This document shows positions 1,476-44,201 of a stretch of 64,000 nucleotides of DNA, one piece after another (the first letter of the stretch is position 1; each line of letters begins with the position of its first letter). The stretch covers positions 9,659-73,658 of the forward strand of contig JAFTXO010000027.1 of assembly GCA_017461765.1 (NCBI GenBank). The letters are read 5' to 3'. The translations under genes and the position numbers were made by a program. This stretch comes from Clostridia bacterium (GTDB taxonomy: Bacteria > Bacillota > Clostridia > Oscillospirales > CAG-272). Under the pieces are notes generated by a model, which had not been told where the DNA came from, did no database searches, and saw only the letters and a list, made by a program, of their open reading frames with translations.

Positions 1476-1527
1476 AGAGCAAGAGTAAAAGGATAAACTT
1501 CCTTCTATTCTTGCTCTGTTCGTTTTT
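1476..1527 (+). terminator. Rho-independent terminator-like hairpin inside the DUF1846/recG gap
   Basis: AGAGCAAGA (1476-1484) pairs with TCTTGCTCT (1509-1517). An inner AAGGA/TCCTT stem is present, followed by GTTCGTTTTT. Confidence 0.5.
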
Positions 1528-1691
1528 ATGAATGAATTGATGCTTACGCATCATGAATTGGCTTCGCCATGATTTCTCGCTTCGCTCCATGAATTGAATT
1601 GCAACCAATGTGCCGTAAGGCACAATTCATGCCGCAGGCAATTCATGAAAGCACCGCTTTCAATTCACGCAGCCGTGAGGTTGCAATTCAT
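1528..1691. repeat. Compound palindromic element E1 (word CATGAATTG / CAATTCATG, 4+4 copies with GC mini-hairpin spacers)
   Basis: Left-arm words start at 1528, 1552, 1568 and 1587. Right-arm reverse-complement words start at 1623, 1639, 1661 and 1684. Spacers are ATGC-TTAC-GCAT, GC-TTC-GC (x2), the apex GTGCC-GTAA-GGCAC, GCC-GCA-GGC and GCAGCC-GTGA-GGTTGC. Confidence 0.75.
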
Positions 1692-1748
1692 AGCGTGTTC
1701 TCCGTTAAGGATAACACGCAATTTAGTCGGGATCTTTGTATTTTTTGA

Positions 1749-3902
1749 TTACGATATCGTTTGGGCATTTAAATTGCAAAGCTCCGAGACCTTTTTTCGC
1801 AATAGCTCATGCTCAGGCTTTGAGAGGGAGCGATCGTCTTTTAGTATTTCTCTTGCACATTCAAAGGCGTTGTGCAAAAGAATATTGTCGTTACAGGATT
1901 TCGCAATATTGAACCCGAGCTCACCCGATTGCCTTATCGAGTCGCTCGATGAGAAAAAGTCACCGGGACCTCTCATTTGAAGATCCTTTTCGGCAATAGT
2001 GTAGCCGTCGTAGGTCGTGTGCATTATCTGTAAGCGCTCCATTGATTTAGGACTTCTTGCATCCGAAACGAGAACACAAAACGACTGATCCTTACCTCTG
2101 CCGACACGTCCTCTTAGCTGATGTAGCTGCGAAAGACCGAAGCGCTCTGCATTTTCAACTATCATAAGCGTAGCATTCGGTACGTTTACACCGACCTCGA
2201 TAACAGTGGTCGAAACGAGAATGTCGATCTCGCCGTTTGCAAAGTGCATCATTATTTCGTCCTTTTCCTTGCATTTCATCTTTCCGTGTAAGAACTCAAC
2301 GGTAAGGTCGGGAAAGATATTTTCTTTAAGCTCCTTGGCGTAGTCAACAGCGGCTTTAAGCGGGGGAGTGTCGTCCTTTATATCAATTATGAACGGATTA
2401 TAGTCGGGAGTGTCAAGATCGTTTTCCTTCTTTTCCTCAACACTCGGACAAACTATATATACTTGATTTTTGTTTTCAACCTGCTTTCTTATAAAGGCGT
2501 TAAGACGCGATCTGTATGATGAATCGACACTGTATGTGTTGACCTTTTTTCGACCGGGTGGCATAGTGTCGATAAGAGATATATCAAGATCTCCATAGAT
2601 CATAAGCGAAAGTGTACGAGGGATCGGTGTCGCACTCATAACGAGCACGTGCGCGCTTGCGCTTTTCTCGGCAAGCTTCGCCCTCTGCATAACTCCGAAG
2701 CGGTGCTGCTCATCTGTTATTACAAGACCGAGATTTTTGAATTCCACACCCGTCTGTATAAGAGCGTGTGTACCTATTACAAAATCGGTATCTCCGCTTT
2801 TCAGGCGGGAGAGTATCTGATTTTTTTCTTTTTTCGGCGTAGATCCCGTTAGAAGCTCGCACTTGAGACCGAGTGAATTAAACATAGGAAAAAGAGAATC
2901 ATAATGCTGAAAAGCAAGTATCTCCGTAGGTACCATAAGCGCACACTGGTATCCGTTTTTGCACGCAATATAAGCGGCAACGGCGGCACATACGGTTTTT
3001 CCGCTTCCTACATCGCCGACAATTATTCTGTTCATAGGCCTTGTGAACATGGAAAAATCTGCGTCGGAAACGGCGTTTGTCGAACACATATCGCCACATA
3101 TATCGGATATTACCTTCTTTTGAGCATCGGTCAACTCATACGGAAGCATATCAACAAGAGGAGAAGCATCACCGTCATTCATTCGCGGCGCAAGCTTTGA
3201 GCTTGATACGGTTTTCATCTGTGAAAGCGAAAGCGCGAAAATAAAAAGCTCGTCAAAGGTAAGACGCTTTATGGCAGCGTGTAATGCTTCGTCACTTTCG
3301 GGAAAGTGTATGTTTTCAAGAGCAAAGGGAAGAGCACATAAATGATATTTGTATCGGATATCTGAGGGGATGTATTCTTTAATAAGAGTGGATATGCAAG
3401 GACGTATCTGAGAAACGAGCTTTGATATATATTTCTGAGTTACTCCTTGAAAAAGAGGATATATAGAAACAAAAGGCGGAAGCTCCTCCTCGCGTACACA
3501 AGGCTCGTAAGACGGTGAATTCAGCGACAGGGTGCGCTTTTCCTTTACGATCCTGCCCCAAAATCTGAATGTTGCGCCCGTTCTGAATACATCCTTTAAA
3601 TAGTTTTGATTGAAATAAGTAACGGTAATGCTTCCGCTATCGTCAAAGGCGCGAAATTTTAAAATATTCATACCTCTGCGTATCATAGCCACCTTCGGCT
3701 CGGAAGCGACCGTCAAAACGTAAGAGTGAGGCATATTATCAAACACAGGGGTGTCTATTTTATATACATCCTTGCGGTTTTGGTAGGCTCTCGGAAAATA
3801 ATAGAGCAGATCGTTTACCGTAAATATTCCGTTTTTATTAAAATATTGCTCGTACTTAGGGCCTACTCCGTATAGCTCGCCTATCGGTGTATCAAGTGTC
3901 AT
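1749..3902 (-). CDS. recG: ATP-dependent DNA helicase RecG
   Basis: 717 aa. The N-terminal wedge region (MTLDTPIGELYGVGPKY...), Walker A GDVGSGKT, DEQHRFG and the QLHQLRGRVGRG motif are typical of RecG. Confidence 0.93.
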   Translation of the reverse strand: MTLDTPIGELYGVGPKYEQYFNKNGIFTVNDLLYYFPRAYQNRKDVYKIDTPVFDNMPHSYVLTVASEPKVAMIRRGMNILKFRAFDDSGSITVTYFNQNYLKDVFRTGATFRFWGRIVKEKRTLSLNSPSYEPCVREEELPPFVSIYPLFQGVTQKYISKLVSQIRPCISTLIKEYIPSDIRYKYHLCALPFALENIHFPESDEALHAAIKRLTFDELFIFALSLSQMKTVSSSKLAPRMNDGDASPLVDMLPYELTDAQKKVISDICGDMCSTNAVSDADFSMFTRPMNRIIVGDVGSGKTVCAAVAAYIACKNGYQCALMVPTEILAFQHYDSLFPMFNSLGLKCELLTGSTPKKEKNQILSRLKSGDTDFVIGTHALIQTGVEFKNLGLVITDEQHRFGVMQRAKLAEKSASAHVLVMSATPIPRTLSLMIYGDLDISLIDTMPPGRKKVNTYSVDSSYRSRLNAFIRKQVENKNQVYIVCPSVEEKKENDLDTPDYNPFIIDIKDDTPPLKAAVDYAKELKENIFPDLTVEFLHGKMKCKEKDEIMMHFANGEIDILVSTTVIEVGVNVPNATLMIVENAERFGLSQLHQLRGRVGRGKDQSFCVLVSDARSPKSMERLQIMHTTYDGYTIAEKDLQMRGPGDFFSSSDSIRQSGELGFNIAKSCNDNILLHNAFECAREILKDDRSLSKPEHELLRKKVSELCNLNAQTIS

Positions 3903-4971: not shown

Positions 4972-5447
4972 ATTAAGTTCTCCTTGGGAAATATTGCGTT
5001 TATACAATTTGATTATAAATTAAAATTCCCTCAAAGTCAATAAAGAAAGAGAATTTTGTAGAAAATATTTTTCGAAATTTCAAAACCATGTCAAACGAAC
5101 CAACTCGAAGCTTGATATTTACGGCGCTTTCAGGCTCACCGACTTTGCAATTCGGTATCAAAAATCATTATGTGTGAAAAGTTTGGAGAAATGGTGAACG
5201 CGTCAAAAAAAGCGTGTGAAATTTGTGCAATTTCAACAAATTGATAACATCAACAAAATATCATAAAGGAAGAAAGCTTTATCATTAAAAAAGTGCCTAA
5301 ATTAAAGGACTTTTAGCAGAAAAAAATATAAATAATTCGAAAAATGAAATTTAGAAAAATTTACATTTAAGACATATTTACAAATTTTTCGAACTTAAAA
5401 AATCTCAAAAAAGCATTTTTAAGAGTTTTATTATATAAAGAACTTCC

Positions 5448-35737: not shown

Positions 35738-35855
35738 TATTGAAGGCTTAGATAAAAGGCTCAGTTTTGTCTTGAGACTGAGCCTAAATAAAAAATAAGA
35801 TAAGACGTATACGAAAATATTTTAGTAAAAAAATAAAAATTAAGCAAAATAAGTA

Positions 35856-35884
35856 TTGACAATTAAGGAAAAACATGATATAAT
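35856..35884 (+). promoter_or_regulatory. Consensus sigma-A promoter for tRNA-Gln
   Basis: TTGACA (35856-35861), 17-nt spacer, TG-n-TATAAT (-10 at 35879-35884). Confidence 0.8.
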
Positions 35885-35903
35885 GCTTAAGCATAAATTA
35901 TAT

Positions 35904-35979
35904 TGGGATATAGCCAAGCGGTAAGGCACCAGACTTTGACTCTGGCATCTCGGTGGTTCGAACCCACCTATCCCAGCCA
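35904..35979 (+). tRNA. tRNA-Gln (anticodon UUG), CCA encoded
   Basis: The acceptor stem TGGGATA pairs with TATCCCA. The anticodon stem CCAGA pairs with TCTGG, with loop CTTTGAC (TTG at 35936-35938). T-arm is GGTGGTTCGAACCCACC and the 3' end is GCCA. Confidence 0.93.
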
Positions 35980-35987
35980 ACAAAAAA

Positions 35988-36020
35988 CGCACTTTTGTCT
36001 ACCGACAAAGGTGCGTTTTT
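35988..36020 (+). terminator. Terminator after tRNA-Gln
   Basis: A 12-bp stem, CGCACTTTTGTC-TACC-GACAAAGGTGCG, followed by TTTTT. Confidence 0.85.
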
Positions 36021-36215
36021 AATGATGTTTGCCTTCGGCAAATGATGTTGGCTTCGCCAATGATGACGGCTACGCCTAATAATGCATGGCTACGCCACAT
36101 TTTATGGCAAACATCGCATCATTGCGGCACGAAGTGACGCAACATCATATTTGCAAAACAAATGCATCATATCGCCGTAAGGCGATGCATCATTGAAGAT
36201 ATACAAGGCTTCGCC
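36021..36215. repeat. Compound palindromic element E2 (word AATGATG / CATCAT(T), 4+4 copies with GC mini-hairpin spacers)
   Basis: Left-arm words are at 36021, 36041 and 36059, plus a degenerate copy at 36079. Right-arm words are at 36117, 36143, 36165 and 36188. Spacers are TGCC-TTC-GGCA, GGC-TTC-GCC, GGC-TAC-GCC (x2), CAC-GAA-GTG, CGCC-GTAA-GGCG and GGC-TTC-GCC. Confidence 0.75.
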
Positions 36216-36244
36216 TTGATTTATTGGCGGAAGTGTGGTATATA
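36216..36244 (+). promoter_or_regulatory. Sigma-A promoter directly abutting E2
   Basis: TTGATT (36216-36221), 17-nt spacer, TATATA (36239-36244), preceded by TGG. Confidence 0.5.
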
Positions 36245-36268
36245 AACAAGAGATTGGAGGTGACGGTA

Positions 36269-36802
36269 TTGAAACGCGAAGAAGCCTTTTATTATATGAA
36301 TTTGTTGTTATTGGGCTTTTCTGATGGCTATGATGATTGGTTGAATTATTATTTAGAAACAGAATCTCCATTGAGTGATATTGTATTAGAACTTTCTCTG
36401 TGCGGCTCGGATGTAAACAAAACCGTATCCCTGTTACACAATTACTGTACGGAACAAGAATTTGACAAGTCTGTTTCTCATGACAAATTGCGACTGTTTT
36501 TCAAAGACGCCTATCATTCAAATAGGATGAGCAAAGAAAAAGTACTATCTACTATGTACCGTCTGTCCTTGAATGTTGGTGATCCAGGAGATTTTGATAT
36601 TAAATTATGGGGTAGCATGTACTATCTCGATTATTACTACGGCTTGGCTTTAGATGGCGTAATCCCGATGGAAAATTTTGATTTTGCTTTTTTCTCATAC
36701 CTTGATAATGGAACGCCGCTCGATTCAGATCTTATTTTGAGAAAAAACATTAAAAAGAAACCGTCATTCCTTGATAAAATTAAAAGCTTTTTTAAAAGAT
36801 AA
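36269..36802 (+). CDS. Hypothetical protein (all-alpha looking, immunity-protein-like small cassette gene)
   Basis: 177 aa when started at TTG 36269, 8 nt after GGAGGTGA (the track ORF starts at 36224). No family recognised. Confidence 0.55.
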   Translation: MKREEAFYYMNLLLLGFSDGYDDWLNYYLETESPLSDIVLELSLCGSDVNKTVSLLHNYCTEQEFDKSVSHDKLRLFFKDAYHSNRMSKEKVLSTMYRLSLNVGDPGDFDIKLWGSMYYLDYYYGLALDGVIPMENFDFAFFSYLDNGTPLDSDLILRKNIKKKPSFLDKIKSFFKR

Positions 36803-36874
36803 TCATAACCGGACACCTTTTGTTCGCAATTACCTCAATTTTTGACCTTTTATCACGTTTAAGACAGATAAACG

Positions 36875-36902
36875 AAAAACGAACCACTTCGGTTCGTTTT
36901 TT
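36875..36902 (+). terminator. Terminator after the 36269 gene
   Basis: CGAACC-ACTTC-GGTTCG followed by TTTTTT. Confidence 0.8.
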
Positions 36903-36915
36903 GTTTATCAGTTAT

Positions 36916-37110
36916 ATTCGCCTTATGGCGAGTTCTATTGCTTTGCAGTGATATTACTTCGTAGTGATATTGCCTTCGGCAGTTGAAAGTAACAGGGCGA
37001 ATATAATATCACTGTGAGCGATGCGAACAATATCACTATGCGTAGCATAATATCACTTCAACGCAGTTGAAATATCACTTAATCGATGCTATACTTATTA
37101 TGAGGTGATA
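36916..37110 (+). repeat. Compound palindromic element E3 (word GTGATATT / AATATCAC, 4+4) including promoter and RBS
   Basis: Left-arm words are GTTATATT, GTTCTATT and GTGATATT (x2). There are four right-arm AATATCAC words. The 3' end carries TTGAAA (37067-37072), 17-nt spacer, TATACT (37090-37095) and GAGGTGA (37102-37108). Confidence 0.8.
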
Positions 37111-37113
37111 ACA

Positions 37114-37469
37114 ATGTCAAATAGCATTTTAAGAGATAAATCAAAGGATTTTGCAAAGCAAATTGTCATTCTTTGCAAAAACATAAAAGCCAATTTAAGG
37201 AATCAGTTTTAACTAATCAGCTTTTGCGTTCCGGCACAAGCATTGGTGCTAATATACACGAAGCTCAATACGCACAAGGCAAGAAGGATTTTATATCAAA
37301 GCTTGAAATTGCACAAAAGGAATGCTACGAAACCGAATATTGGCTTGAGCTTTTATTTGAAACAGGCTATATGTCAGAATCGGAATACAAGCCTATTCAA
37401 AATGAATGTGGTGCTATTCGCAGAATGTTAATTTCATCTATAAATACCACTAAAGCCAATTTGGAGTAA
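37114..37469 (+). pseudogene. Four-helix-bundle protein (23S rRNA intervening-sequence protein family), frameshifted
   Basis: The N-terminal part MSNSILRDKSKDFAKQIVILCKNIK is in one frame (stop at 37210-37212). The rest, SQFKESVLTNQLLRSGTSIGANIHEAQ...ETEYWLELL, is in another frame. The junction is the A4 run at 37185-37188. Confidence 0.7.
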
Positions 37470-37519
37470 CAAACTAATATGCTATAATTAAGTCAGAAAT
37501 ATAGTAAAGGAGAACAAAT

Positions 37520-38023
37520 ATGCCTATTTGGTACGAAGTTGAACATTCGAAAACAGGTATTTATAACTTTATGGAATGTAATTGGCATTTTCACGATTTT
37601 GAGATTGAACGCATTAGTTATTTGCCTGATGAAAATTCAGTAGAACTTTTTTTGAAGTATGATGAATTAAAGGGGAGTGTAATTCTTAGATTTATCAATG
37701 TATACTCTATGAATGTAATGTTTAAAGTAGAATATGGAAGCTTAGATAACATTATGGGAAGCGTTTTGCTCTTAACACAAAATGGACAGTTTTTGTGGAT
37801 TGATAATGATTCGTGGGGTGATAAAAGCAAGCACCATATTGAAGAACTCAAAAAAGAGTCTTCGTGGGTACAAGCTGAAAACATCATTTGGGCGGTTACT
37901 GATGAATATGGAAATCCTACCGAAATGCCTGCAAATAAAATTGACCAAGTATGGCAAATTTACGGTAAAATAGAGCATCATCATTTTGATTTGAAACCTT
38001 ATAATGGGAACAATCAGGAATAG
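37520..38023 (+). CDS. Hypothetical protein (small cytoplasmic, immunity-protein-like)
   Basis: 167 aa. RBS AAGGAGAA lies 6 nt upstream. No family recognised. Confidence 0.6.
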   Translation: MPIWYEVEHSKTGIYNFMECNWHFHDFEIERISYLPDENSVELFLKYDELKGSVILRFINVYSMNVMFKVEYGSLDNIMGSVLLLTQNGQFLWIDNDSWGDKSKHHIEELKKESSWVQAENIIWAVTDEYGNPTEMPANKIDQVWQIYGKIEHHHFDLKPYNGNNQE

Positions 38024-38072
38024 TTAGAATTTTATTTAGTTTCGGTTCAATTTTCGCACATCCTGTTCAGAC

Positions 38073-38103
38073 CAGTTGAATTCTCAACTGAGTCTTTTAT
38101 TTT
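38073..38103 (+). terminator. Hairpin terminator after the 37520 gene
   Basis: CAGTTGA-ATTC-TCAACTG followed by AGTCTTTTATTTT. Confidence 0.5.
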
Positions 38104-38136
38104 CGGCTTGGGATTGGATTATGGTTCTCACCATTT

Positions 38137-38877
38137 TTATTTTGCGAATACAATCTCGTTGACAATCTCGCAAATCTGTGTAATTATATCAAGGTCAAGC
38201 TCCATAAATGGCAAGGGCTCTACACGCTTACCTGTGAGGGTAGCTAACCAGGTTAGGGCAACGGCATATCTTCCGTAGGTATGAGACATATGGAAGCCGT
38301 CGCAGCACAGGGACTCTCCGCCGTTTGCATAATCAAAGGCGGGCACTCGCTCACGAAGTGCCTGAATAACGTCACCTGCCGGAATCATTGTCGCACCAAT
38401 TGCCAAGCATGCGGACTCCGAGGCACAACGAAGTGCTTCGTACATCTTTTTTTGATCGCAATCATATAGTGGAAAATCTCCGTGGGTTGAGTCAATTTCA
38501 TATGCCCACGTGCGATGAAAATATAGATCCGCACTCGGTTGATGCTTACGTACATACGCGGCAAGGTCGTTAAGATATGGCTGATAGGTTTCATACTGTC
38601 CGGAAAAATGGCTTACCTGCTGTAAGGTGACAATGTCAAAATGCTCATTTTTCAGGATTTGCTCAATTGTAACACGATCATCCTTCCACGCATCACCATT
38701 TATGATATGCAAATAATTTGCATTTCCCTGTACTACGTTTTCCCAGTGTGTCTGAAGGCTGCAACCGCCAATAGCCAAATTAACCGTTGTCAAATTCACG
38801 CCTCTCTGTTCTGCCAAAGCATGCAAATACGCATGCGCATCTATTGAAAAGCTATTACCAATAGATAAAATTTTCAT
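38137..38877 (-). CDS. DUF4886-like SGNH-fold hydrolase family protein
   Basis: MKILSIGNSFSIDAHAYL... Start set at M55 of the track ORF because GGAGGA lies 7 nt upstream. The longer ORF would run into repeat E4. Confidence 0.7.
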   Translation of the reverse strand: MKILSIGNSFSIDAHAYLHALAEQRGVNLTTVNLAIGGCSLQTHWENVVQGNANYLHIINGDAWKDDRVTIEQILKNEHFDIVTLQQVSHFSGQYETYQPYLNDLAAYVRKHQPSADLYFHRTWAYEIDSTHGDFPLYDCDQKKMYEALRCASESACLAIGATMIPAGDVIQALRERVPAFDYANGGESLCCDGFHMSHTYGRYAVALTWLATLTGKRVEPLPFMELDLDIITQICEIVNEIVFAK

Positions 38878-38905
38878 ACCGCAATCCTCCGTTGGTTTTT
38901 TCTTA

Positions 38906-38934
38906 AGTTTAGCATATTTTCTTGCATTTTGCAA
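38906..38934 (-). promoter_or_regulatory. Promoter of the DUF4886-like gene with overlapping inverted repeat
   Basis: The minus strand reads TTGCAA, 17-nt spacer, TAAACT. The perfect inverted repeat TTCTTGC-ATTTT-GCAAGAA (38919-38937) overlaps the -35. Confidence 0.5.
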
Positions 38935-38961
38935 GAAAAATATATCTATCCATCCAAGATG

Positions 38962-39070
38962 ATTCGCCTTCGGCGAGTTATATTGCTTTGCAGTGATATT
39001 ACTTCGTAGTGATATTGCCTTCGTCAGTTGAAATATCACTTAATCTATGCTATACTTTTTACGAGGTGAT
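38962..39070 (+). repeat. Element E4: shortened near-identical copy of E3 including promoter and RBS
   Basis: About 95 percent identical to E3 over its length but lacks 84 nt between two CAGTTGAAA 9-mers. It carries TTGAAA (39028-39033), 17-nt spacer, TATACT (39051-39056) and GAGGTGA (39063-39069). Confidence 0.85.
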
Positions 39071-39073
39071 TAT

Positions 39074-39715
39074 ATGAAGATAATTGATTTAACTCACACA
39101 ATAAAAGAGGATATGCCTGTTTATCCCGGCACAAATCCGCCGTCGCTTTCCGTTGCCAACACTTATAAAAATGGAGGCTTTAAGGAAACATTGATTTCAA
39201 TGTACAGCCATACCGGCACGCATATTGATCCGCCTGCTCATATTTTCGAAGGTAAGATGACGCTTGATGCGTTTGACGCATCTCAATTTGTTGGCTCGGC
39301 AGTGGTTATAGATTGCCGTATGCTCAAAGAGGGAGAGGAAATTTCGCTTGAACATATAAAGAGCTACGGTGAAAAAGCCGAGAGAGCAGACTTTTTGCTT
39401 TTTAATCTCGGTTGGGACAAAAAATGGGGAACACCCGATTATTTCGGAAGCTATCCGTGCCTTTCAAGCGACTCACTTGACTATATCATAAACGGTAATT
39501 ACAAGGGGATCGGCTTTGACGTAATAGGTCTTGACCCTATAAATGATCTTGCCCTTGAAAGACACAATAAGCTTTTTTCAAAAAAGAACATAATAAATAT
39601 TGAAAACTTAAAAAATCTTGATCTTTGCGGAAGCGAGCTGTTTACTTTTGTTTGTCTGCCGATAAAAATAGAAAATTCCGACGGCGCGCCATCAAGAGCG
39701 ATTGCTATTGTCTAG
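39074..39715 (+). CDS. Cyclase family protein (kynurenine formamidase-like fold)
   Basis: MKIIDLTHTIKEDMPVYPG...HTGTHIDPPAH is typical of the putative-cyclase family. Start at M10 of the track ORF. Confidence 0.8.
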   Translation: MKIIDLTHTIKEDMPVYPGTNPPSLSVANTYKNGGFKETLISMYSHTGTHIDPPAHIFEGKMTLDAFDASQFVGSAVVIDCRMLKEGEEISLEHIKSYGEKAERADFLLFNLGWDKKWGTPDYFGSYPCLSSDSLDYIINGNYKGIGFDVIGLDPINDLALERHNKLFSKKNIINIENLKNLDLCGSELFTFVCLPIKIENSDGAPSRAIAIV

Positions 39716-39731
39716 TGTATTGATCACTGTC

Positions 39732-40577
39732 TTAATATTCATATTCAAAGGAAGCCTCGCTCGTTTCGAAGGAAAGCAGTGTATTATCTCCTATTTTGAA
39801 GCAATACGCCGCATTGCAACAGATGCTCTCGTGAATTGTTCTGCTCATTGTACCGCTTTCGGGAGCAAAAAGGGGAAGCGCTTGCTTCTTTATGAGCTTT
39901 ACCGACAAACTCATGTCCCTCTGAGCTATGATAATTTCTCCGCCTTCTATTTTCCTTACCTTTGCTCCGAGATAAGTTGCTAAACGGTATTCCTTTTTGT
40001 CGATAACGATCACCCCGATCACTCCCGTAAAGAAGAAAGATCCTATTGGGATACTTGCAACACTTAGCATAAGAGAGCCGTTTTCAAAAAAGCATTGAGT
40101 CCACGCGTACTCCTTCGGAAATGAATAACCGCGATCTCCTTCAATATATCCCAAATCATTATCAAAGCAATAATCTTTGCCATTTATCGTTATTTCGCCC
40201 GTCACAGTGTGCCTCATGCTGACAACAGTGTGTCTGCATTCCATAAAGGGAACGTATCGAAACGGGCCCATAATATCATATTTTATCGGGGAAAATTCTC
40301 CGAATTTAAGAGATCCCACTGCTGTACAATCGGGAGTATTCAAGCATAGCTCTATTCCGTCGGAGGAGAAGCGATTATTTTCTATATCTATATTAAAATT
40401 CTTTTTTTGCTTGCAAAATTTATCATATGGAAAGCATATGTTAAAGACTCCGTCGTTTGTAATCAACTGAATTGAGCACGATCTGTGATCCTTCGACTTA
40501 TGAATAGCAGGAATTATCGCTAACGCTTGATTTGAAGACTGACATTTAAAATACCATCCGCAAAAATATTCTCGCAT
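39732..40577 (-). CDS. Tocopherol-cyclase-like family protein (tentative)
   Basis: About 281 aa. The N-terminal GWYFKCQ and central GYIEGDRGYSFPKEY resemble the bacterial tocopherol cyclase-like family as I remember it. The start is uncertain (40577 or 40586). Confidence 0.45.
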   Translation of the reverse strand: MREYFCGWYFKCQSSNQALAIIPAIHKSKDHRSCSIQLITNDGVFNICFPYDKFCKQKKNFNIDIENNRFSSDGIELCLNTPDCTAVGSLKFGEFSPIKYDIMGPFRYVPFMECRHTVVSMRHTVTGEITINGKDYCFDNDLGYIEGDRGYSFPKEYAWTQCFFENGSLMLSVASIPIGSFFFTGVIGVIVIDKKEYRLATYLGAKVRKIEGGEIIIAQRDMSLSVKLIKKQALPLFAPESGTMSRTIHESICCNAAYCFKIGDNTLLSFETSEASFEYEY

Positions 40578-40661
40578 AAAAACCAACCCTATGTTTTTTA
40601 TGAAATTATTTCCCTACAAATTATAAAATTATACAAATGATTTATAATTCCAAAAATTCAG

Positions 40662-40700
40662 CGAGTGCCAAAATCGACACTCGCTTTTTGCTATTTTGTA
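40662..40700. terminator. Bidirectional hairpin terminator
   Basis: AGCGAGTG...CACTCGCT, with an A-run on the left and TTTTT on the right. Confidence 0.7.
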
Positions 40701-40768
40701 TCCTATGCAAATGGTGTGTATTTTTCAATTATATCAATAAACCATTGCTCGCCACGAACATTATTATA

Positions 40769-41824
40769 CTATTCATCACTTTGAATATAATCTAACTCTC
40801 GTTTCACTTCATTACATTCAAAGCCGGAATAAACCTTAGCTGTTTCAAATTTGACATTTTTTACAAGATACGAGGAATGAATTGTAGTTTCAGGTAGTTC
40901 GTCATATGCTTTGGCGTGGTATAACCCTGATTCAAGACTTTTTGCACAGCTTTCATAATCTTTTTCATAGGAATAACGACTTGCTAACCAAAGATAAAGC
41001 TCCGCTAATTCATAGTGGCTAAAGCCATAATCAGCTTCGTCATAAATTAGCTTAATGAAATCTATTGTCTTGTTTAATATTCTGATAGCTTCCGTATTTG
41101 TTTCTGCATACAAACTACAGATTTTGATTTTCTGAGAAAGCTCTCCTGAAATATCATAAATATTTTTTCTTACATATTCCCACCACTTTTCGCTGCCTCT
41201 TTCGTAAAGCTGTTCTTTTTCTTCTCCCTGTAATTCAAACGGTAAAAGCTTTATATATTCTAATGCTTTTTCTTTGTTTCCCATATTTCCATAAATACCA
41301 CTCAATAGGCTTATGGCTCGATATCTGATCGGTTCGTCAAGACATTCATTTAATACTCGTTTACATAAGGTTAAAAGCTCTTCCTTATGCGGTACTTTTT
41401 CATAGTTTTCGGGAAGCTCTCCCTTTTCTTCCTTTTTCCAATATTCTTCCCAAAAATATGGGTCATAGTATAGTGCCAACATATAATGTTCCAAAATTCT
41501 ATAATCATTAGGGTATTCACGATGTGCTTGGCAAATGAAATCAAATTTATCTTTATCCTTACCAAGATTGGAAAGACGGTTGAATTCCTTTATTATTTCG
41601 TCAATTTTAGCTTGCTTTTTAGCCAAATCAACGCCTAAAAGCTCATCTGTTGTAACATTAAAAAAGTTTGCAAGTATTGGAAACATAGTTACATCAGGCA
41701 AGGAGGCATTGGTTTCCCACTTTGATAGTGTTTGAAAGGACACATTGAGCCTTTCTGCAAGCTCCTCTTGTGTCAAATTCATTTTTCTGCGTAGTGCTTT
41801 TATTCTGTTACCAAAATTCTTCAT
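40769..41824 (-). CDS. XRE-family HTH transcriptional regulator with TPR-like C-terminal domain
   Basis: 351 aa. The N-terminal segment is IKALRRKMNLTQEELAERLNVSFQTLSKWETNASLP. The C-terminal roughly 270 aa is helical-repeat (TPR-like). Confidence 0.8.
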   Translation of the reverse strand: MKNFGNRIKALRRKMNLTQEELAERLNVSFQTLSKWETNASLPDVTMFPILANFFNVTTDELLGVDLAKKQAKIDEIIKEFNRLSNLGKDKDKFDFICQAHREYPNDYRILEHYMLALYYDPYFWEEYWKKEEKGELPENYEKVPHKEELLTLCKRVLNECLDEPIRYRAISLLSGIYGNMGNKEKALEYIKLLPFELQGEEKEQLYERGSEKWWEYVRKNIYDISGELSQKIKICSLYAETNTEAIRILNKTIDFIKLIYDEADYGFSHYELAELYLWLASRYSYEKDYESCAKSLESGLYHAKAYDELPETTIHSSYLVKNVKFETAKVYSGFECNEVKRELDYIQSDE

Positions 41825-42057
41825 TGAAATTCTCCTTTAAGATTATTTCCTCGAGGTTAATTCTATTTTAACACATTTTTAGATAAAATCTATATAAAGT
41901 CAAGCGAATATTTTTCTAATGGTATTAGAAAATTCTATTGAGAGGCAATAAATTGATTTTTATAATGTGACCTAACTATTTACAAAAATTTAAATTCATG
42001 CTATACTTTACTTAAAGAACTCATATATCAATGGATACTTATTAAGGTGGTGACATT

Positions 42058-42768
42058 ATGCTAAGTCCGGAAGCTCGATCTATTATAAGAAGCTGGGTCA
42101 AGTTCTTATTTGAGCTGCTTATCTTGATTTTGATTATAGCTGTGATCGTTTTGATATACCGTTATATCAGGGCAATATACAAGCGAGCGAGGTTCGTTAC
42201 CAAGGCTACCTTTTATTGCAAAACAAATAAGCTGAAATTACAAAAAAACAGCTTTCAATATTTATCGATTTTATGTAATACAAAAAAGCCCGATTTAATA
42301 ATGGAAACGGAAAATAAGCGATATGTAATAAAGTATTTTACGCCCTCGATTTTAAAAAATGTAAATTTGAGCTTTATAACCCCGAATCGCTATTTTATAA
42401 CAAATGTCAAGGGCTTTATATTGGTTGCAAAAAATGTAGGATTTCTTTTGCGCGCAAGGCTTTTTAAGCCAAAAAACATAGACTCTACCTTTTTAAGCCT
42501 AACACATACGGAAATAACAGAGCATATAAAAGGTGAAAAGCGCCTGCCGACTATATCCTTTGATTTGTATAAGAGTGCTGAAAAGGAGACTGAGAATATT
42601 TTAATAATAAATCCGATCCCGCTTAATGTTAAATACATAAACAAAAATAAATTTGATTTGTTGTTGAGCGGGGACGAGTATCACAATTTTAAGATATATT
42701 CTTCGGAAGAGTTTCTTATGACGTTTATAAGAGCTCACGAAAAAGAAAGGGCAGAATTTGAAAAATAA
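42058..42768 (+). CDS. Membrane-anchored hypothetical protein
   Basis: 236 aa with one N-terminal TM (FLFELLILILIIAVIVLIY) and then a Lys-rich soluble domain. RBS AAGGTGGTGA. Confidence 0.6.
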   Translation: MLSPEARSIIRSWVKFLFELLILILIIAVIVLIYRYIRAIYKRARFVTKATFYCKTNKLKLQKNSFQYLSILCNTKKPDLIMETENKRYVIKYFTPSILKNVNLSFITPNRYFITNVKGFILVAKNVGFLLRARLFKPKNIDSTFLSLTHTEITEHIKGEKRLPTISFDLYKSAEKETENILIINPIPLNVKYINKNKFDLLLSGDEYHNFKIYSSEEFLMTFIRAHEKERAEFEK

Positions 42769-42806
42769 CTCTTACCGTGATAAAATAAATTAAAATGGAG
42801 CATTTT

Positions 42807-43526
42807 ATGGATACTATAAAATTTGAAAAACGAAATACACTTACAGTAGCACACAGAGGTCTTTCTGGTATAGAAGCCGAAAATACCAACGCCGCATTTG
42901 TCGCAGCGGGAACCCGATCCTATTTTGGAATAGAAACAGATATACACAGAACTGCAGACGGACGTTTTATCATAAATCATGACGGTAATTTAAACCGTAT
43001 CGCCGGAGTTGATATAAACGTCGAAAGCATTGATCTTGATACGCTTCAAAGCATAATTCTTTTCGATAAGGACGGAACAAAGGATAGATTGGATCTGCGT
43101 CCTTGCACGCTTGAAAACTATATAAGCATCTGTAAAAAATACGCAAAGCATTGTGTCCTTGAGCTTAAATCCGAGTTTTCCGTTGAAGAAACATCCTGCT
43201 TTATCAAGATAATAAAGGAGCTTGACTACATAGATAATGTAACATTTATTTCGTTTAATTACGATAATTTGTTAAAGGTAAGAAGCATTCTTCCAAATCA
43301 ATGCGTGCAATATCTTTTTTCTGATATTACAGACGAGCTTACAAAAAGGCTTGCTCACGATAAAATAGATGTCGATATACGCTATACCTCTCTTTCAAAG
43401 GAAAGCGTTGATAATTTTCATAAAGCAGGATTAAAGGTAAACTGCTGGACTGTTGACAGTAAGGAGGATGCAGAGCGCCTTGCGCTTTGGGGAGTTGATT
43501 ATATAACGACCAATATTCTTGAATAA
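42807..43526 (+). CDS. Glycerophosphodiester phosphodiesterase family protein
   Basis: VAHRGLSGIEAENT...ETDIHRT is typical of GDPD. Start at M5 of the track ORF, after GGAG. Confidence 0.85.
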   Translation: MDTIKFEKRNTLTVAHRGLSGIEAENTNAAFVAAGTRSYFGIETDIHRTADGRFIINHDGNLNRIAGVDINVESIDLDTLQSIILFDKDGTKDRLDLRPCTLENYISICKKYAKHCVLELKSEFSVEETSCFIKIIKELDYIDNVTFISFNYDNLLKVRSILPNQCVQYLFSDITDELTKRLAHDKIDVDIRYTSLSKESVDNFHKAGLKVNCWTVDSKEDAERLALWGVDYITTNILE

Positions 43527-43541
43527 AAGAGTCAAATATTT

Positions 43542-44201
43542 ATGAAAGAAATTAAAGTAAAAAACAAAAGGGTCAATATAAATAAGTTAGTATCGTTCGG
43601 TTTTGTAAAAAGCGGTAACGAATATATTTACTTATGCTTTTTGGCTGACGGTAATTTGAAAATGAGGGTGACCTTATCGAATGAAAAGCTTTATTCCGAA
43701 ATTACAGACGAATTCGGAGAAGAATACACTCTTCATCTGATCAAGGATATAAGCGGAAATTTCGTTGGTAAGGTCAAGCTTGAGTATGAAGATAAAATAA
43801 ACGAAATACTTGAAAAATGCTTTGATGTTGAGATCTTTAAAAGCATTCAGACAAAAGAAATCATAAAATATATTGAAAATAAATACGGTGATACACTTGA
43901 ATTTTTATGGGAGAAGTTTCCTGATAACGCCGTCGCAAGAAGAAAGGACAGCGGTAAATGGTATCTTGCCGTATTGACTGTATCTAAAAGCAAATTAGGT
44001 CTTGATGATGACGAAAAGATCGAGATAGTAGATTTGAGAATAAAAACAGAGGAAACTGAAAAAACCGTTGATAATAAAAAATATTTTTCGGGATACCACA
44101 TGAATAAAAAGCATTGGATAACGATCTGCTTGGACGGCTCTGTTTCCACAGATGAAATTTTCGAAAGAATAGAGGAAAGCTACAATCTTGCAATAAAATA
44201 A
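43542..44201 (+). CDS. MmcQ/YjbR family DNA-binding protein with extra N-terminal domain
   Basis: 219 aa. The C-terminal half, ...LEFLWEKFPDNAVARRKDSGKWYLAVL...GYHMNKKHWITICLDG..., matches the YjbR-like pattern. Confidence 0.7.
   Translation: MKEIKVKNKRVNINKLVSFGFVKSGNEYIYLCFLADGNLKMRVTLSNEKLYSEITDEFGEEYTLHLIKDISGNFVGKVKLEYEDKINEILEKCFDVEIFKSIQTKEIIKYIENKYGDTLEFLWEKFPDNAVARRKDSGKWYLAVLTVSKSKLGLDDDEKIEIVDLRIKTEETEKTVDNKKYFSGYHMNKKHWITICLDGSVSTDEIFERIEESYNLAIK

Follow-up and report, generated by a model that had tools for sequence, protein, structure and literature searches.

The Gut-1 motif (Rfam RF01706) was reported by Weinberg et al. 2010 (PMC2864571; Genome Biol 11:R31) as a probable non-coding RNA of unknown function with 43 representatives, all from human gut metagenomes. 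It has stood in Rfam since 2010 as an orphan small RNA (sRNA) known only from gut metagenomes, and the RF01706 model consists of four GUGAAAU words and three hairpins. An equally orphan protein family, the four-helix-bundle family S23p, forms a homopentameric toroid and is encoded inside the inverted-repeat-bounded, 'selfish' intervening sequences (IVSs) of 23S rRNA, and there is an old suggestion that the open reading frame (ORF) of the IVS aids mobility (PMC4990558). Here, we examine a stretch of 64,000 nucleotides (the window) from Clostridia bacterium assembly GCA_017461765.1 (contig JAFTXO010000027.1, positions 9,659 to 73,658), in which a preliminary description had recognized two similar direct repeats, E3 and E4, on either side of a 1.85-kb block. 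On the evidence of sequence and predicted folding, both belong to the catalogued but unexplained Gut-1 family, and the motif that has been modelled appears to be one arm of a larger strand-symmetric element that is widespread in ruminant and human gut Clostridia. In the reading we prefer, for which the chances seem about even, E3 is a complete and E4 a decayed copy of a single Gut-1 lineage, and the family acts as DNA and is associated with gene cassettes.

Identification of E3 and E4 as Gut-1 elements

The default Rfam scan was silent because all of the RF01706 scores are below the gathering threshold of 50 bits, though that of E3 falls just under it. A permissive Rfam scan matched the model to the left arm of E3 (36909–36975, plus strand; 48.8 bits, E 1.4e-6), to E4 (38955–39020, plus strand; 43.7 bits), to the right arm of E3 read on the minus strand (37025–37116; 42.3 bits) and weakly, at 27 bits, to a further element in the window, E2. 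The E-values for the E3 and E4 arms, 1e-6 to 6e-5 over the whole window, are statistically significant, and the fit is full-length, covering model positions 1–77, with four GUGAWAU-type words and three short covarying hairpins. A T-box, a riboswitch or another Rfam family was rejected, Gut-1 being the sole match if tRNA is set aside.

The RF01706 seed itself points beyond the model. Seed sequences BAAZ01025322 and BAAZ01000095 (...CAGUUAUAUUCGCC..AGUGAUAUU..GCGAAUAUAAUAUCAC...) have the words, the centre and the inverted arm as in E3, and when the seed alignment is viewed with its flanks the members with GUGAUAU words run on into GCGAAUAUAAUAUCAC... and further AUAUCAC words. One of these members follows a tRNA gene. 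The inverted arm is present in the seed alignment but unannotated. The four words and three hairpins of the model correspond to one arm, and the curated threshold misses many copies.

Anatomy of E3 and E4

The preliminary description began E3 at 36916, which is too far to the right, as word 1 occupies 36910–36918 and is preceded by a G+C hairpin, H0 (36867–36909, plus strand), that forms the left border of E3. H0 has an A-run before it and a T-run after it, gives a positive terminator scan on both strands and, with its G+C stem and following T-run, has the form of an intrinsic terminator, predicted to end transcription of the upstream gene at 36269–36802. The left arm of E3 (36910–36979, plus strand) comprises words at 36910 (AGTTATATT), 36931 (AGTTCTATT), 36947 and 36963 (both AGTGATATT), each followed by a hairpin (CGCCttatGGCG, GCtttGC, ACttcGT and GCCttcGGC in that order). 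The centre (36980–37004, plus strand; CAGTTGAAAGTAACAGGGCGAATAT) includes the first copy of the 9-mer CAGTTGAAA, and the part of it reading GGCGAATAT can pair, as their reverse complement, with CGCC and the end of word 1 that precedes it, predicting a long-range stem, P1. In the right arm (37005–37079, minus strand), four inverted words AATATCACT at 37005, 37029, 37049 and 37071, with hairpins between them, make up a minus-strand Gut-1 unit.

E4 (38962–39040, plus strand) is a decayed copy, which retains hairpin 1, words 2–4 (38976, 38992 and 39008), hairpins 2–4, a single CAGTTGAAA (39025–39033) and the last inverted word (39032–39040) and has lost H0, word 1, the centre and right-arm words 1–3. 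The word AGTGATATT occurs ten times in the window against 0.74 expected, and nine of the ten lie inside E3 (two forward, four inverted) or E4 (two forward, one inverted). Apart from the left edge, the anatomy that had been given for the two copies was accurate and describes a real, non-random structure.

Architecture and conservation of the family

A word-only pattern (two forward words and one inverted word with free spacers) was searched against a collection of species-representative genomes, and the family counts below refer to the more than 118 stretches found among the matches listed (n=123, 114 or 108 copies). The further copies that the preliminary description had proposed to look for therefore exist at more than 118 loci in other genomes, in addition to the related E1 and E2 in the window. 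All of the host labels are gut metagenome-assembled genomes (MAGs), assigned to Acutalibacteraceae, Oscillospiraceae, Ruminococcus, Christensenellaceae, Eubacteriales or Clostridia.

The full element is a 170–200-bp strand-symmetric palindrome of words, the 9-nt words AGT[G/T]NTATT each being followed by a short G+C hairpin. Its common layout is H0, then cAGTT(A/C/T)TATT-CGCC.loop.GGCG, three more words with hairpins, a centre AGTT..GGCGAATA(T/G/A) and four AATATCACT words with hairpins; four words in each arm is the commonest arrangement (58/123). Within one dialect the words are near-invariant across more than 100 species, and the stems vary with compensation, compensatory double changes being found in 26 of the 41 consensus pairs. 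The variable base of word 1 and its partner in the centre are A–T in 41 copies, C–G in 38 and T–A in 24, with non-Watson–Crick combinations in just 5/108, and the long-range stem between word 1 and the centre is also the one that RNAalifold chooses. An equivalent of H0, ending no more than 4 nt from word 1, is present in 108 of 114 members. Other word dialects (GCGATAT, ATGATAT, ATGTAAT, ATTTCAC and AGTGATG) occur within the same loci. Many copies are orthologous across species, with the words conserved and only the loops drifting.

The elements lie at borders of transcription units. Twenty-three of the 123 copies (~19 %) are within 100 nt of the 3' end of a tRNA gene in the same orientation, with a constant distance between the two and many tRNA specificities represented. 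The upstream ORF is co-oriented with the element in 69 cases against 20 and the downstream ORF in 57 against 21, and about one quarter of the copies face a convergent gene.

Several other identities for the words were considered and rejected. Stop/start signals (RTGA) fail since the GCGATAT dialect is without TGA, and a cascade of intrinsic terminators fails since the words make poor U-tracts. The spacing and the hairpins do not fit a kinship of the word with omega-repressor heptads, Fur boxes, or CRP or Rex half-sites. A phage or plasmid origin was also rejected, the general word pattern giving no match in viral contigs and none in plasmids. The only match in the phage and plasmid collections is a weak Gut-1-like stretch (75 % over 134 nt) at 5049–5180 of MT835815.1, a 17-kb contig from human faeces that is labelled 'Bacteriophage sp.' and carries no annotation.

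A spurious ORF of approximately 100 aa runs through the element in six-frame translation at several loci (L019, L021, L027, L036, L084 and others) and could contaminate protein databases. For annotation, the element accounts for the contig breaks and spurious ORFs that recur in these MAGs.

Genes for XRE-type helix-turn-helix (HTH) proteins with a QAVSKWE motif lie directly downstream of the element in six of the 123 copies and within 8 kb at 11 loci (including L013, L038, L048, L051, L060 and L092); that in the window (40769–41824) is 1.7 kb from E4.

DNA or RNA

Several features, among them the strand symmetry of the element, the complementarity of its loops and the near absence of a G–U excess, favour an element acting at the level of DNA over an sRNA made from one strand. 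The spacer stems are Watson–Crick paired in 1022 and 1751 cells, and the ratio of G–T to A–C is 15:15 for the left arm and 42:21 for the right. The left-arm loops TTC, TAC, TTAC and TGC are the exact complements of the right-arm loops GAA, GTA, GTAA and GCA, and when read on the AATATCACT strand they take the forms C(GNA)G and C(GNRA)G, most of them being triloops. GNA triloops closed by C–G, as in d(GCGAAGC), form exceptionally stable DNA minihairpins, and structured RNAs seldom contain triloops. The two strands of an alignment of 74 sequences fold equally well, at −38.2 and −41.0 kcal/mol with RNA parameters and −16.1 and −18.8 with DNA parameters.

The reading implied by the Rfam entry is that each arm is a structured sRNA or cis-acting RNA, so that E3 holds two convergent copies and E4 one truncated copy, and the words are single-stranded sites for binding protein or RNA, presented by a transcript between its hairpins. 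It draws on the significant covariance-model matches, at E 1e-6 to 1e-4, and the abundant compensatory changes already described, on the resemblance of near-invariant words between variable stems to a sponge or binding platform, and on a slight G–T excess on the AATATCACT strand (57 against 36 with both arms combined); moreover, a bidirectional H0 could end a minus-strand transcript begun at the right. However, the position of H0 within 4 nt of word 1 leaves no room for a promoter between them, and transcription arriving from upstream should stop at H0. In the left arm G–U is no commoner than A–C, and as the loops of the arms are mirror complements one arm would always be antisense in any transcript. 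Together with the predominance of triloops, which is unusual for RNA, and the equal folding of the two strands, this makes the RNA reading unlikely in our judgement.

The 84-nt difference between E3 and E4

The two copies share two direct-repeat blocks in the same orientation, the first of 62 nt (36927–36988 and 38972–39033; 97 %) and the second of 46 nt (37064–37109 and 39025–39070; 93 %). The 9-mer CAGTTGAAA is found twice in E3 (36980–36988 and 37064–37072) and once in E4 (39025–39033, where the two blocks overlap); hence, E4 corresponds to E3 minus exactly the 84 nt between the two 9-mers. That interval holds the centre and right-arm words 1–3 (37005, 37029 and 37049), and word 4 is kept, exactly as had been proposed. 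When the 84 nt are removed from E3, 103 of 111 positions match E4 (~93 %), so that the earlier statement that the copies are near-identical direct repeats stands and its figure of 95 % is slightly high. The copies can be told apart by CGCCTTATGGCGAGTTCTATT, specific to E3, and GCCTTCGTCAGTTGAAATATCAC...TATATGAAGATA, specific to E4. A change in word number is also seen at locus L092 (1319–1430), where a partial tandem duplication within the right arm repeats two words with their hairpins, indicating that slippage alters the number of words, in line with the E4 deletion.

Comparison with relatives

Public contigs (ENA/Logan) with the exact cyclase or gene-C protein of the window are all from the same strain (99.9 % identical). 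The nearest other species found is represented by locus L150 (GCA_017623355.1), with a groEL 97.7 % identical to that of the window, in which the order is promoter, tRNA-Gln, H0, an element of the GATGATATAC dialect, a four-helix-bundle gene, a 170-aa gene, H0', an element of the GTGATAT dialect, the cyclase gene and GDPD. The cyclase-linked element in L150 is near-complete, and its right arm and promoter are as in E3 and E4 (ATGC(A/G)TAGCAT-AATATCACT-TCAACGCAGTTGAAATATCACTTA..ATGCTATACTT). In locus L129, where the cyclase is 85 % identical, a 40-nt relic of the element (AGTGGATATTGAAATAAAATCACC) is followed by TTGAAA-17-TATAAT and GAGGTGATTATATG in front of the cyclase gene, and DUF4886 is on the other side of that gene.

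From the comparison with L150 and L129, the copy linked to the cyclase gene is ancestral and has been eroding from the left and from the middle while its promoter and ribosome-binding site (RBS) were retained, and the E3–E4 block is a lineage-specific insertion flanked by the duplicated element. The 1.85-kb cargo between the copies is absent or rearranged in both relatives. Neither a lack of further copies nor a region identical in all relatives, the outcome that would have told against the preliminary description, was therefore found. Its proposal that the two copies could mediate deletion or duplication of the block between them remains plausible, and a mobile or unstable block is supported by the relatives; no allele with a deletion or duplication was seen in JGI metagenomes or among the ENA/Logan contigs.

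The whole tRNA-Gln island, which runs from the tRNA promoter as far as GDPD, has opposite orientations in the window (35850–43600) and L150 (9600–12700), and in L150 the interval between tRNA-Gln and GDPD is without gene A, gene C, DUF4886, TocCyc, HTH and g42058. L150 and L151 (~12415) are assemblies of the same species that are 99.9 % identical up to a TATATCATC word in the left arm of the tRNA-proximal element and unrelated beyond it, which could reflect either a rearrangement with its breakpoint at the word or a chimeric assembly produced by the repeat.

Mobility

Near-identical direct pairs also occur elsewhere. In L125, two copies 97.7 % identical over 177 nt and 0.65 kb apart lie around a four-helix-bundle gene, and in L017 the copies are 97.6 % identical and 2.7 kb apart, with homology that begins exactly at word 1. 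The element–cargo–element layout is, given these recurring pairs, a pattern and not an accident. Such pairs are what would be expected if the family consisted of non-autonomous transposable elements mobilized in trans, similar to miniature inverted-repeat transposable elements (MITEs) or to the doublets of repetitive extragenic palindromic (REP) sequences known as REPINs, with E3 derived from E4 by a local hop. Copy number, long inverted arms, extragenic location, the presence of several dialects per genome and the breaking of assemblies inside the element fit this, and the four-helix-bundle gene lies between elements in L125 and in the window as the gene for a REP-associated tyrosine transposase (RAYT) lies between REPINs.

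When 775 ORFs from 118 loci were clustered, no recurrent mobility enzyme (transposase, integrase or RAYT) was found near the elements; the only recurrent neighbour families were four-helix-bundle, XRE, AraC and ABC, and the top cluster was the spurious ORF of the element itself. No target-site duplication was present at the borders of E3 or of the L017 and L125 copies, nor was an empty site seen. Many copies have orthologues in other species, the plasmid and viral collections contributed none apart from the weak match in a phage contig, and the homology between E3 and E4 continues past the element into the promoter and RBS. Transposition is thus, like the RNA reading, an account we think unlikely to be correct.

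Predicted promoters

Both copies are followed by a good predicted sigma-70/sigma-A promoter and a Shine–Dalgarno sequence, as the preliminary description had stated. In a promoter scan, TTGAAA-17-TATACT with an upstream TG matched the consensus at 10 of 12 positions at each copy. At E3 (37067–37109, plus strand) the promoter is at 37067–37095 and the RBS GAGGTGAT at 37102–37109, 4 nt before the ATG at 37114, and at E4 (39028–39070, plus strand) they are at 39028–39056 and 39063–39070, 3 nt before the ATG at 39074. The last hairpin of E3 provides the −35 box in its 3' strand, and the last word sits within the spacer. An orthologous arrangement stands before the cyclase gene in L150 and, as it is also found in L129, the TTGAAA/TATACT promoter is by sequence comparison ancestral to the cyclase gene.

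The wider claim, that the element is a portable expression signal, does not extend to the family. A sigma-70-like consensus match was found at the right edge in 26 of 108 copies, compared with 17 of 108 on the control strand, and therefore a promoter is not a general part of the Gut-1 element. Twelve of the 26 matches belong to four-helix-bundle cassettes, in which the −35 box starts at the last T of the last word. The E3 and E4 promoters look real by consensus and appear to be local to their lineage and to the four-helix-bundle cassettes.

The overlap of the last word with a promoter, in the spacer at E3 and E4 and abutting the −35 box in the four-helix-bundle cassettes, raises the question of whether a transcription factor controlling the adjoining promoters recognizes the words in duplex DNA as operators (iterons), E3 and E4 then being regulated promoters. 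The near-invariance of the words within a dialect and the recurrence of XRE-type regulators downstream are in keeping with this. Nevertheless, binding to duplex DNA leaves both the compensated hairpin spacers and the pairing of word 1 with the centre unexplained, most copies are without a right-edge promoter and E1 lies between convergent genes, and we regard the operator reading as distinctly improbable.

The four-helix-bundle gene

The gene that starts at 37114 (37114–37469, plus strand) encodes a four-helix-bundle protein (S23p, PF05635, TIGR02436; Pfam 1.8e-26) and is frameshifted. Frame 1 stops after 32 codons, a 1-nt frameshift having occurred after about codon 25, near 37186, and residues 25–118 continue in the ORF at 37173–37469, which is 82 % identical to P0178, an intact homologue carried by a Ruminococcus sp. 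The frameshift is also present in independent assemblies of the strain, and we take the gene, from its sequence, to be a pseudogene in the lineage of the window. Homologues in L107, L123, L024 and L150 also look truncated or frameshifted, and four-helix-bundle genes therefore seem to decay often.

Though this gene had been described as unrelated, it habitually lies beside the element. A PF05635/TIGR02436 gene begins 45–52 nt after the last word in 13 of 123 elements (~11 %, counting E3 and a degenerate case in L024). When four-helix-bundle homologues were fetched irrespective of the element, all of those with enough upstream sequence had an element in front, and they span at least three gene neighbourhoods, with several contigs breaking inside the element. 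The gene is ~80 % identical across loci, and the groEL of L104, the only carrier locus with a groEL, is 71 % identical to that of the window. A second dialect (TATATCATC / GATGATATAC, with words also GTATATCATC) precedes a divergent four-helix-bundle gene (50–59 % identical) in L107, L123 and L150. With 7990 clusters at E <= 1e-10, the protein family is very large. Among solved structures the nearest is 2rld, which has five chains and represents an uncharacterised protein, and nothing relevant was found in the literature on the family beyond the IVS papers.

A conserved leader of ~55 nt (AGGGGTATGGGC...GCGAAACTGGCGATAAA) with no Rfam match directly follows the element promoter in some loci and the stop codon of the four-helix-bundle gene in others (L023, L026, L074, L108, L118, L120 and L134, e.g. 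L134 3355–3420). At the sequence level, the four-helix-bundle cassette looks as if it had been precisely inserted at, or deleted from, the junction of the last word with this leader.

Other elements and genes in the window

E1 and E2, found by a k-mer scan of the window plus direct reading, have the same architecture as E3, with four words separated by short G+C hairpins of unrelated sequence, then four inverted words, and with word 1 and the 5' strand of the first hairpin complementary to the centre. E1 (1476–1720, plus strand) uses a third word dialect (ATGAATTG four times and CAATTCAT four times, with hairpin spacers) and is placed after the terminator of the gene at 26–1336, facing the 3' end of recG (1749–3902, minus strand), so that it lies between convergent genes; it has no downstream promoter and is not detected by the Rfam Gut-1 model. 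E2 (35983–36260, plus strand; words AATGATG and CATCATT) is directly 3' of tRNA-Gln (35904–35979) and its terminator, and has a weak promoter (TTGATT at 36216, TATATA at 36239) at its right end. The last 50 nt of E2 (GAAGATATACAAGGCTTCGCCTTGATTTATTGGCGGAAGTGTGGTATATA) share homology with a GATGATATAC-dialect element in L123, at the right end and promoter of the latter, and this shared promoter end leads into a four-helix-bundle gene in L123 and into an unrelated 177-aa gene in the window.

Besides the four-helix-bundle gene, the block between E3 and E4 contains cargo gene C (37520–38023, plus strand; 167 aa), which has no family match and is not at the equivalent place in L150 or L129, and a DUF4886 (SGNH-like) gene (38137–38877, minus strand; Pfam 3.6e-65) transcribed towards E3. 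Downstream of E4 is the cyclase-family gene (39074–39715, plus strand; PF04199 by Pfam), the ancestral downstream partner of the element. The small genes between elements (36269–36802, 177 aa; gene C; and L150 11392–11904, 170 aa) have no family match and are mutually unrelated; they look like interchangeable orphan cassettes, for which an immunity-type role would be a guess.

Interpretation

Under the reading in which a Gut-1 lineage acts as DNA, E4 would be the decayed descendant of a copy that had long stood before the cyclase gene and from which H0 and word 1 disappeared. An event of slippage or recombination between the two CAGTTGAAA 9-mers would next have removed the centre and three right-arm words, and the stretch surviving in E4 would be the promoter and RBS of the cyclase gene. 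The duplication would have arisen when the 1.85-kb cargo of four-helix-bundle gene, gene C and DUF4886 came to lie between the element and the cyclase gene, for which homologous integration of the Campbell type, slippage during replication and a dedicated mechanism are all candidates, and the right-edge promoter of E3 and E4 would belong to the adjoining cassette and have been carried along. When single-stranded, each arm may fold as an array of mini-hairpins that shows the words to a word-specific factor, and the pentameric four-helix-bundle protein encoded at the right edge would be the best candidate for the reader. Sited at the borders of transcription units, after tRNA genes and terminators, the elements would persist for long periods with local copying and would serve as homology or recognition sites where small cassettes are gained, lost and reshuffled. 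Single-stranded action, the reader protein and the recombination mechanism are the parts of this account that we infer; the membership, architecture, covariation and strand symmetry, the tRNA and four-helix-bundle associations, the ancestral position of E4 and the variability of the block were found directly in the comparisons above.

A number of observations weigh against this account. The stems are only 3–6 bp, too short for unaided extrusion from duplex DNA, and the single-stranded or folded state of the DNA at the arms is deduced here indirectly. The hairpin covariation is equally compatible with RNA, and the Rfam curators rate Gut-1 as 'certainly RNA'. The missing mobility enzyme, target-site duplication and empty site count here as they do against transposition, and in the search for strain variants or a deletion allele an exact 30-mer had no matches in JGI metagenomes and no E3 × E4 recombinant was among the ENA/Logan contigs, which come from one strain. 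The identity of 93–97 % between E3 and E4 could be due to gene conversion instead of recent duplication. As for the reader protein, just ~11 % of the elements have a four-helix-bundle gene, which is a pseudogene in the window and probably in L107 and L123, and the covariation of word with protein is based on two dialects only.

That nothing functional is involved, the intergenic region having been duplicated by chance and then shortened, is scarcely credible, since although a single duplication and a single microhomology deletion would suffice to describe the pair, the family is conserved and structured at more than 118 loci among the matches listed, with near-invariant words and covarying stems, and the element–cargo–element layout recurs elsewhere.

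A bolder extension of the DNA reading is that Gut-1 arrays and the S23p pentamer form an unrecognised two-part system, in which the protein recognizes, on single-stranded DNA or RNA that has folded, the 9-nt words of its own dialect, the arrays mark sites close to tRNA genes and terminators, and the two together propagate and exchange small gene cassettes without a classical transposase or integrase. We offer it as a speculation that is rather more likely to be wrong than the accounts called unlikely above. If it were true, the partnership would be REPIN–RAYT-like and would explain the presence of S23p genes in the inverted-repeat IVSs of 23S rRNA.

Comparison with known systems

Integron attC sites resemble the Gut-1 element in being imperfect palindromes with conserved folding and free stem sequence that punctuate small variable genes, and single-strand folding, central to attC function, is what we suppose for the Gut-1 element. 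However, the cassettes here have their own promoters and mixed orientation, and the element is 5' of the gene, not 3'. An attC identity was rejected, as the borders CAGTTATATT / AATATCACT do not fit the R''-L''...L'-R' boxes (RYYYAAC / GTTRRRY) and no IntI integrase was found among the neighbours. Of the features of MITEs, the inverted arms are present and a transposase among the neighbours of the 118 loci is not.

The REP sequences, bacterial interspersed mosaic elements (BIMEs) and REPINs of Enterobacteria and Pseudomonas, with their RAYTs, are similar in more respects. They too are extragenic, multi-copy palindromic units in inverted arrangement located after genes, with several families per genome, long-lived vertical copies and a small cognate gene flanked by repeats. 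Their cognate RAYT, a Y1 transposase, has no counterpart among the neighbours of the 118 loci. In the Gut-1 element it is the single-stranded word that is conserved and the stems that vary, whereas in REPs it is the reverse, and there are four units per arm in a fixed register.

The 23S rRNA IVSs with an S23p ORF (Leptospira, Coxiella and Xanthomonas; PMC4990558) share with the Gut-1 element the same protein family, strong self-complementarity, a sporadic distribution and an unknown function. They differ in that no rRNA is present in the window, the gene is beside the palindrome and not within it, and the IVS palindrome is a simple 28-bp stem, not an array of words and hairpins.

The closest described relative remains Gut-1 itself, with which E3 and E4 share the four words, three short hairpins, the terminator-like hairpin in front and the gut habitat, the seed members with GUGAUAU words having essentially the same sequence as the left arm of E3. 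As described, Gut-1 is one arm only and is termed an sRNA, E3 and E4 score below its threshold (48.8 and 43.7 against 50), and the inverted second arm, the stem between word 1 and the centre, the dialects, the tRNA adjacency and the four-helix-bundle gene are missing from the description. The element now has concrete partners in tRNA 3' flanks, variable cassettes of small genes and the S23p family, and the nature of Gut-1 and the role of the 23S IVS protein merge into one testable hypothesis.

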